DNA of 56,271 nt, the filler included, from Perkinsus olseni (lineage: Eukaryota), in assembly GCA_013115125.1 (NCBI GenBank). It is 6 parts of 6 records of this genome, joined end to end, with 100 filler letters (N's around TTAATTAATTAA, not from the genome) between each part and the next. Parts side by side here need not be neighbours in the genome. Positions count along the whole stretch, not along the records: positions 28,339 to 37,612 come from JABANN010000923.1; 5 more parts are not named here. One strand, given 5' to 3'. The notes beneath the pieces were generated by a model, which had not been told where the DNA came from, made no database searches, and saw only the letters and a list, made by a program, of their open reading frames with translations. The first letter of the stretch is position 1; each line of letters begins with the position of its first letter. Position numbers and translations under genes: made by a program. Positions 32,483 to 33,563 of this stretch are shown in pieces.

Positions 32483-33563
32483 TCAGACCGAGGAACGGCA
32501 AACTCGCCCGTGCTCTAGAAACCATTTCTCGAAATCAGGGCCCAAGTCGTTCGCCACTTTAGCGGCAGCGTGAAGACCCGTCTCGCGAACAGCGAGGCCA
32601 TAGGGAGGATCCCTTTGAGTACCTGCCCTTAACAACGCTACCCAGCGACGTAGCACCTCGCAGCAGTGTGAATTGGAGAGGTTCCGCAAGATTTTACGCT
32701 CTGTCACGTCCGTAGTGGCCCCTAGAACCGTAACCAGCTGCTCAAGTAAGTTAAAGAGCCTTTTCTTCTCGGGAGCGCGAGCCTTCGGCTTCGGGCCACA
32801 ACGGTGTTTGGCCTTGGAAAGCTCTGCCTCGCAAGCGCTTGACGAAACGTGCTGCACAGGTGACGGAGGCAACGAGGGTGTCTTGGCCCGACGGTAGTGA
32901 AGGGCAGGACTTTCCCCTGCCGAAACCAGGTCGCCTGAAGCGAACAATGGGAGAAAGCCAGGGAAAGCAACGAGAATCAAGGGAGTACTACAGGGCGGCA
33001 TCGGCTGACCCGCAGGAATGAACTTAAGGTGCACGTACTTCGAACGTATGAAGCGCTCGAGAGCAGGCGTACCTTTGAGGGAAGGCAGAGAGAGAGGCGC
33101 CGGCTGATTACAGTACCCTGCGAAGGCGATGGCCTCGAAAAGCAAGGAGGAAGATTGTGCTCGTAGTAGGAATTGGCCACAGCATTGCCAACATCGGCCA
33201 TCAAGGAGAGCCAGCTACAAAGGACAAGACATCCGGCGAGTAGGAATGCGCGGAACGGAAGAGCTGTGAGGCGCGGGCTCACCATGGTCCCCAGGCGTCC
33301 AGAGTAACGCTTTTGACGAGAGACGTTCTCATCCCGAGAGCCGAGTGCACCAGTCCGCAGGCATAACAGACGAACACACCCACATTAACGACGGCCCATC
33401 TAGGAGTTGGGGAGCCGCAATCTGACGAAAGGGAGGGGATCCTCACGAGGGGAGCGGCATATGACAGAAGCTAGAGAGTACCAGCACAGAAGTGATTATC
33501 AGGCCTTGCAAGCAGGTCGTCGAGTCGGCGGGAATCAGCAATGGAGGGGCCGCGGAAGGGCAT
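32483..33563 (-). CDS. ArfGAP-domain protein, multi-exon, carried inside the hAT element
   Basis: Exons 33563-33482, 33421-33283 and onward splice to RPDNHFCADCGSPTPRWAVVNVGVFVCYACGLVHSALGMRTSLVKSVTLDAW...VGNAVANSYYE...LERFIRSKYV. Confidence 0.9.

Follow-up and report, generated by a model that had tools for sequence, protein, structure and literature searches.

The analysed stretch of DNA (hereafter "the window"; 56,271 bases) was taken from the Perkinsus olseni assembly GCA_013115125.1 and consists of six contigs joined by spacers. The gene considered here lies on the fourth of these contigs (JABANN010000923.1; positions 28339-37612, 9,274 nucleotides (nt)), where six exons on the minus strand encode an ArfGAP protein, i.e. 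one bearing the domain of the Arf GTPase-activating proteins (GAPs). The encoded domain is predicted to have a complete ArfGAP fold with its zinc ligands intact and no arginine (Arg) finger. Because the window is stitched together, features on opposite sides of a spacer are not genomic neighbours, and the context of the gene was therefore restricted to 28339-37612.

Contigs of four public runs (X6, X7, X8 and X9) were compared with positions 28339-33720, and all ArfGAP exons were read from the minus strand. Regions to which X8 or X9 contributed no cover were counted as evidence solely where a contig spans them with a joint. The 5' untranslated region (33564..33583) was delimited by an X8 contig that reaches 33583 and then continues with 9 non-genomic nt matching the 3' part of the Perkinsus spliced leader; in the excerpted text of PMC3101222, the 22-nt leader PmaSL1 contains this loose end. 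Exon 1 (33482..33563) starts with the ATG at 33563-33561 and encodes MPFRG...NHFCA and the first base of the Asp28 codon; its joint to exon 2 (33421>33482) was found in X6, X7, and X8. Exon 2 (33283..33421) holds the second half of the zinc finger, the GLVHS loop, and VKSVTLDAW, with no other letters in the X7 and X8 pieces. Exon 3 (33117..33214; GNAVANSYYE...) was placed using Pfam, the run contigs, and the translation. The contigs and the translation likewise define exon 4 (32992..33072; ERFIRSKY..., including the end of the Pfam domain) and the last exon (32483..32622; stop codon at 32485-32483). Exon 5 (32698..32934) encodes an unrecognised region of low model confidence and was assigned from the contigs, the translation, and the predicted local distance difference test (pLDDT) scores of the structural model described below.

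When translated with four introns, the window reproduces the database protein P0008 (283 residues, named Perkinsus olseni) letter for letter. The contigs of X6, X7, and X8, which come from three studies, skip these introns (60, 68, 44, and 57 nt) and also a fifth of 75 nt; all are of the GT..AG type. The fifth (32623..32697) is in frame and is coding in P0008, and unspliced contigs were observed as well. Removal of all five gives a protein of 258 residues with a single terminal stop, while retention of the last gives the 283-residue form; the annotation, whose gene model is one intron short, probably makes the protein 25 residues longer than it is. None of the splice joints was present in the DNA-type run X9. 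The ArfGAP gene is transcribed and spliced, and the concern that it might be untranscribed, raised in an earlier note on this DNA, is answered by the spliced, leader-bearing contigs. Of the usual marks of a pseudogene, no frameshift, internal stop, or intron loss was found across the six exons.

Exons 1 and 2 together (33563..33283, minus strand) encode C-AD-C-x16-C-YA-C-GLVH-S. Exon 1 ends in ...NHFCA, the split codon supplies Asp28, and the translation of exon 2 is CGSPTPRWAVVNVGVFVCYACGLVHSALGMRTSLVKSVTLDAWGP. The spacing of the C4 zinc finger, CX2CX16CX2C, is satisfied by C26, C29, C46, and C49; in a background alignment of 254 ArfGAP-domain rows, all four of these columns are invariant. 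In the excerpted text of PMC2542466, the ArfGAP signature is given as CX2CX16CX2CX4R, with its Arg required for activity, and that of PMC6724607 states that mutation of the Arg finger abolishes GAP activity. The Arg expected four residues past the last Cys (CX2CX4R) is absent from the window protein. Ser54 occurs instead, encoded by TCG at 33344-33342 on the minus strand, and sequence alignment places it in the Arg-finger column of SMAP; letters other than TCG were absent at 33342..33344 in X6, X7, X8, and X9. Among the 248 background rows that are filled at this column, Arg occurs in 245, Lys in two, and Gln in one, with Ser and Asn in none. At least two base changes separate TCG from any Arg codon (no single-base neighbour encodes Arg), and Ser54 is therefore not the product of a single recent point mutation.

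The Pfam ArfGap profile (PF01412) matched the full database protein with an E-value of 3.3e-32 (111.4 bits, compared to a cut-off of 28.7) over profile positions 2-114 of 117, and exon 2 alone with an E-value of 1e-14 (55.1 bits). A phmmer search of the PDB aligned CYACGLVHS to CIRCAGIHR of the SMAP1-like entry 2iqj (E 3.2e-27), followed by 2crr (E 8.5e-26). An AlphaFold model, calculated from a 72-row alignment, had pLDDT values above 95 for residues 1-150 and of 46-72 for the remainder. The best Foldseek match of the predicted fold was the GAP domain of SMAP2 (2iqj_A; template-modelling (TM) score by target 0.94, root-mean-square deviation 0.8, 116 columns); the model leans on the family alignment, and the fold assignment is accordingly a prediction. 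The other hallmarks of the family are present as W36, NVGVF, VKSVTLDAW, GNAVANSYYE, and FIRSKY. The earlier note had described the motif with its TCG-encoded Ser, the signature ending in an activity-required Arg, the conservation of the other hallmarks, and an unrecognisable C-terminal region of ca. 100 residues. All four descriptions were borne out (the second by the excerpted papers cited above), and the Pfam alignment that it proposed as a check covers nearly the full profile, with Ser at the Arg site.

That note had also asked whether the change from Arg to Ser is fixed or is a private mutation. Ser was found at the finger site in every copy observed, namely the window, three database accessions (representing two sequences), and all four runs, which contained no other letter at 33342-33344; no copy had Arg. 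The database cluster of the window protein at 90% identity has two members: P0008 (283 residues, one accession) and P0005 (199 residues, two accessions). The latter differs from P0008 in one residue and ends early, at ..LFNLLRL. Run X9 derives from another isolate, and between 32745 and 33720 it differs from the window at five positions. One of these is non-synonymous (32818, changing a Ser of the tail to Pro, as in P0005), one is synonymous (33297), two are intronic, and one is upstream; the protein sequence of the ArfGAP domain is unchanged between the alleles. A 1,696-nt contig of X9 joins 29240 directly to 32745, with 30 nt in place of the 3,504 nt (29241..32744) that are absent. The ArfGAP gene thereby loses its 3' end, and a neighbouring hAT-like gene everything past codon 9. 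By eye, the 30-nt filler resembles the sequence just to the right of the break, and the difference has the appearance of a common deletion accompanied by templated filler, not of an excision at element ends. This loss accounts for the 199-residue form ending in ..LFNLLRL.

Relatives of the window protein were sought with HMMER among 1.84 billion representatives, yielding 9,867 matches at E <= 0.001. After the protein itself, the best match was P0009 of P. chesapeaki (48% identity, E 7.9e-47). When P0009 was used as the query, it retrieved P0161 of P. olseni (68% identity over 98% of the query), P0162 of P. marinus (64%), and the partial P. olseni protein P0163. The motif SGIHR is found in P0161, P0162, and P0009, and P0163 begins past it. 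The canonical orthologs thus include one of P. olseni itself, and the window gene is therefore an extra, divergent paralog of the canonical SMAP-like ArfGAP of Perkinsus. Its introns indicate that the duplication occurred at the DNA level. A second divergent protein of P. olseni, P0159, and its partial twin from another assembly, P0013, read SRIHN at the same place, with Asn at the finger site and an Arg one residue on. In its annotation, P0159 forms the C-terminal portion of a 542-residue protein with a WRKY19-type zinc finger, a model that may be a mis-join. Its annotated end (..PPCST..) matches the window when intron 4 is read through, which suggests that the two genes share this intron position and that P0159 is mis-modelled there.

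A tree of 38 domains pairs the window protein with P0159 as sisters (support 98/92) within a Perkinsus clade (96/95). Both have long end branches (1.18 for the window protein and 0.55 for P0159, on a shared stem of 0.30), whereas those of the canonical copies are 0-0.04. An approximately unbiased (AU) test rejected a separate clade of the three canonical copies (p 0.011); the group tested was chosen after the tree had been viewed, and very few sites decide the outcome. If accepted as it stands, the result would place the duplication after the split from P. marinus.

The distribution of the changes within the domain was examined next to the background alignment, in which a site was called conserved at 80% or more. 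The window protein retains all zinc ligands and the family-invariant W, H, G, S, D, N, E, K, and Y. It deviates from such conserved sites at profile positions 39, 42, 51, 52, 55, 60, and 61, the changes being from WAS..NLG...CSGIHRNLGVHIS to WAV..NVG...CGLVHSALGMRTS. P0159 deviates at G52, R55, H60, I61, and R117. The two paralogs thus have in common changes at G52, R55, and H60, each of which is 97-99% conserved. With the Perkinsus rows taken out of the background, the window protein keeps 32 of 38 conserved residues compared to 33 of 79 variable ones (Fisher p 1.1e-5), and the six conserved sites that have changed all fall between profile positions 39 and 60. The corresponding figures for P0159 are 34 of 38 and 41 of 79 (p 6.5e-5). 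In the window protein, the changes spare the fold and strike the catalytic loop.

The C-terminal region presents a different picture. It matched no Pfam family, and the ESM Atlas offered no usable match by features and none above a TM score of 0.40 by structure. When the last exon was searched against a word index, its own cluster alone was returned (one of 240 candidates). At the place where the canonical Perkinsus paralogs have ..DLLDLADF.., the window protein has ..LFNLLEQL.. (compared by eye); LLDLADF resembles the clathrin box that SMAP proteins carry in the tail.

These observations are probably best accounted for by a fast-evolving duplicate of a SMAP-type ArfGAP that has become a natural pseudo-GAP without an Arg finger. 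A competing account, to which we assign a real but distinctly smaller chance, is that the gene is a duplicate that is transcribed but has no function and is turning into a pseudogene, the loss of the Arg being the first visible damage. The very long branch (1.18), the C-terminal half with no relatives and low model confidence, and the replacement of the clathrin-box-like LLDLADF by LFNLLEQL all fit decay. So do the occurrence of the gene in one species alone and the existence of an allele truncated by the 3.5-kb deletion (in another isolate and in two of three accessions). However, the frame is open throughout the six exons, and all five introns are intact, with GT..AG ends. At least 52-59 replacements have accumulated, during which ca. 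3 nonsense changes would be expected under neutrality (probability of none, 0.03-0.05). The preferential retention of conserved sites, with exceptions clustered at the catalytic loop, its recurrence in the sister paralog, and the identity of the domain protein sequence between alleles also argue against decay.

Several points nevertheless weigh against the pseudo-GAP account. The gene was found only in P. olseni, and searches limited to proteins of near-equal length returned no ortholog. Its domain diverges from the canonical copy by 46%, a value that falls within the between-species range for the canonical proteins' unconstrained tails, and constraint on the domain is partial at best. The alleles differ by one non-synonymous and one synonymous change in ca. 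600 coding nt, too few for a ratio of non-synonymous to synonymous rates (dN/dS). The 199-residue truncating allele is carried by two of the three database accessions and by run X9, meaning that the protein can do without its C-terminus or that the gene is in decay. Runs X6, X7, and X8 are not recorded as RNA, and the cDNA nature of their contigs was deduced from the splicing and the leader. Finally, both the lost GAP activity and the binding of Arf are deductions from sequence.

The nearest neighbour of the ArfGAP gene is a hAT-like transposase gene on the plus strand (29194..32044; seven exons, a 794-residue frame, ATG at 29213, stop codon at 32042-32044). It was found spliced in X6 and X7, whose contigs skip all six of its GT..AG introns, and has a spliced-leader-like 5' end in X7: the sense-strand equivalent of the same 9 leader letters stands directly before 29194, the start of the gene. 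Its Pfam matches were below the cut-offs (zf-BED, E 0.018-0.042; Dimer_Tnp_hAT, E 0.033-0.039), and its nearest ESM Atlas clusters were all Dimer_Tnp_hAT (score 0.94, 174 shared features). The gene may represent an active element, or it may have been domesticated. The two genes are arranged tail to tail, and a contig of the hAT transcript extends to 32622, past the ArfGAP stop codon.

Both genes lie in a unique block of 4.9 kb (ca. 28869-33798), with a high-copy repeat to its left and a tandem array of 179-nt units to its right. The array (33795..34760, upstream of the ArfGAP gene) has three copies before a gap of 100 N (34327-34426) and more after it. The sequence separating the ArfGAP and hAT-like genes includes a degenerate unit of the same repeat (32306-32445). 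At its left end (28339-28740), the contig consists of a very high-copy repeat, with a summed contig depth of up to 3,630 in X9. A contig of X6 that is 90% like 28603-28868 continues directly into sequence resembling the 179-nt repeat. The left contig end and the reverse complement of 34700-35120 were also compared as candidate element termini; only two short inverted arms were found (28555-28660 and 34856-34947), resembling repeat fragments, and the candidate was rejected. The regions 28339-28740 and 34856-34947, the latter upstream of a gag-protease frame (34984-37612), may be oppositely oriented fragments of one retroelement family. A search of the 9,274-nt contig with Rfam gave no matches at E <= 0.1.

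This arrangement bears on the suggestion of the earlier note that the ArfGAP gene is cargo of a transposon or a fold repurposed by one. The tail-to-tail position next to an intact, expressed hAT-like gene whose transcript overlaps the ArfGAP 3' end, the repeats on both sides of the unique block, and the copy of the left repeat joined elsewhere to 179-nt-repeat-like sequence are what a mobile unit carrying both genes might leave. The other evidence makes movement of the gene with a hAT transposon very improbable. No pair of terminal inverted repeats (at least 10 of 14 matching) with a target duplication (at least 7 of 8) was found around the transposase or around both genes (left ends 28347-29213, right ends 32100-34318), in a search that used a single set of thresholds and no shuffled control and that an old, decayed element would escape; moreover, the ends of the 4.9-kb block are unlike hAT termini. 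The ArfGAP gene appears in X9 as one unbranched contig of 1,696 nt and in the database as a single 90% cluster to which each assembly contributes one protein. It is apparently single-copy, contigs and clusters being weak evidence on this point. At 90% likeness, X9 contigs did not cover the hAT-like gene at all, and it is therefore not a repeated family there, with the proviso that contigs show presence more reliably than absence. The breaks of the X9 deletion are inside both genes (29240 and 32745) and its filler is like a copy of the flank, indicating deletion instead of excision. The other transposons of the window sit on other contigs. The cargo idea is thus unsupported, and the window proved to be a concatenation of short contigs.

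The spacers between these contigs have the structure N44-TTAATTAATTAA-N44 (44 N on each side of a 12-mer) and recur at steps of ca. 9.4 kb. That at 28239..28338 forms the left edge of the 9,274-nt contig. The right edge (37613..37712) and the remaining spacers (9359-9458, 18804-18903, and 46954-47053) were recognised from their paired N runs. On the other contigs, Ty3/gypsy-like pol sequences (RVT, integrase) and Bel/Pao-like gag-pol sequences are distributed among 13436-17851 (minus strand), 47955-55463 (plus strand), 45232-46272 (minus strand), and 21846-25708. The same four places also contain a fragment resembling a selenocysteine elongation factor, a RAP-domain frame, and an NAD-dependent epimerase frame.

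Among known systems, the SMAP subfamily (human SMAP1 and SMAP2, and plant proteins like AGD5 and AGD15) is the closest. Its members likewise are small, with the ArfGAP domain at the N-terminus and, behind it, a tail for which no fold is predicted with confidence. The PDB entry nearest to the window protein in both sequence and fold is the SMAP-type 2iqj, and AGD15 and AGD5 are among its nearest named matches outside Perkinsus. Unlike these proteins, the window protein has Ser for Arg and five further changes of near-invariant residues around the catalytic loop. It also appears to have lost the clathrin-box-like motif (as seen by eye), and its C-terminal ca. 100 residues are without relatives. 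The canonical Perkinsus proteins (P0161, P0162, and P0009) make up the parent family, with 54% identity over 129 domain columns and membership of the same clade (96/95), and the similarity continues beyond the Pfam domain to ...PPPPCELV... They differ in keeping SGIHR, in their short branches (0-0.04, compared to 1.18), and in their tails, which are unrelated to that of the window protein past approximately residue 183. P0159 and P0013 are like the window protein in their sister position (98/92), in having no Arg finger, and in the three changed sites G52, R55, and H60, but have Asn in place of Ser, an Arg one residue on, and a shorter branch (0.55).

Two other groups lack the finger. Engineered mutants of ArfGAP1, ASAP1, and others have had the same residue removed, with loss of GAP activity according to the excerpted text of PMC6724607; these, however, are laboratory changes in otherwise unaltered proteins, whereas the window gene combines a natural loss with a remodelled loop. 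In P0010 (Lys), P0011 (Gln), and P0091 (Lys), the Arg is replaced within a good ArfGap domain. Neither Ser nor Asn serves as the replacement in these proteins. Two of these domains are additional to a canonical ArfGAP domain in the same protein, and all three come from unrelated lineages with metagenome or run sources.

The course of events under the pseudo-GAP account is as follows. The canonical SMAP-like ArfGAP gene of Perkinsus was duplicated at the DNA level, and the copy, alongside its sister paralog, then evolved 30-90 times faster than that gene, giving the present six-exon gene of P. olseni, in whose product the N-terminal 130 residues form a complete SMAP-type ArfGAP domain. In both paralogs, three near-invariant loop residues were replaced: G-x-H-R became L-x-H-S in the window protein and R-x-H-N in the sister, and the His of LGxH became R and N, respectively, while the four zinc cysteines and the core were retained. 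Since the Arg is required for activity and Ser54 stands in its place, canonical GAP activity should be lacking. Such a protein would not stimulate the hydrolysis of GTP by Arf in the canonical manner and would qualify as a pseudo-GAP. If it is functional, its most likely role would be non-catalytic docking to Arf-GTP, as an effector-like or competing binder; alternatively, if it is maintained, it may have lost its Arf function and serve as a scaffold. The pseudo-GAP proposed in the earlier note therefore holds at the level of the sequence (the Arg finger, which the family definition requires, is absent), while its functional half, i.e. Arf-GTP binding and a decoy or dominant-negative action, is putative.

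It may also be asked whether the protein is still a GAP, using a relocated residue or a finger supplied in trans. A candidate for the former is Arg59, which occupies the conserved-His site five residues past the lost finger; in the sister, an Arg stands beside the Asn. An Arg has been gained near the lost one in both paralogs (GLVHSALGMR in the window protein and SRIHNRLG in the sister), and there is precedent in RanGAP and Rap1GAP, GAP families that function without an Arg finger. On the other hand, Arg is found at the canonical position in 245 of 248 related domains, and a relocated-finger ArfGAP was not found in the open-access literature searched. We consider retained GAP activity improbable. 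It would be a bolder proposal, and one we hold doubtful, that P. olseni keeps by selection two sister proteins with an ArfGAP fold and no Arg finger, either as non-hydrolysing binders of Arf-GTP (dominant-negative-like regulators or effectors of membrane traffic) or as GAPs with a relocated residue.

An ArfGAP domain is defined in part by its Arg finger, which almost every natural domain of the family retains. Searches of open-access text turned up no account of a natural ArfGAP lineage that lacks the Arg, and the papers returned for ArfGAPs together with Perkinsus were, judging by title, unrelated. If the proposal is true, these paralogs would be the first described natural lineage of pseudo-ArfGAPs or of ArfGAPs with an alternative finger. 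A natural, expressed, Arg-less fold, together with a sister that has suffered the same three losses in the loop, would offer a test of non-catalytic roles of the domain such as Arf-GTP binding and scaffolding, and would do so in a parasite of molluscs (shellfish) whose membrane traffic has been little studied.

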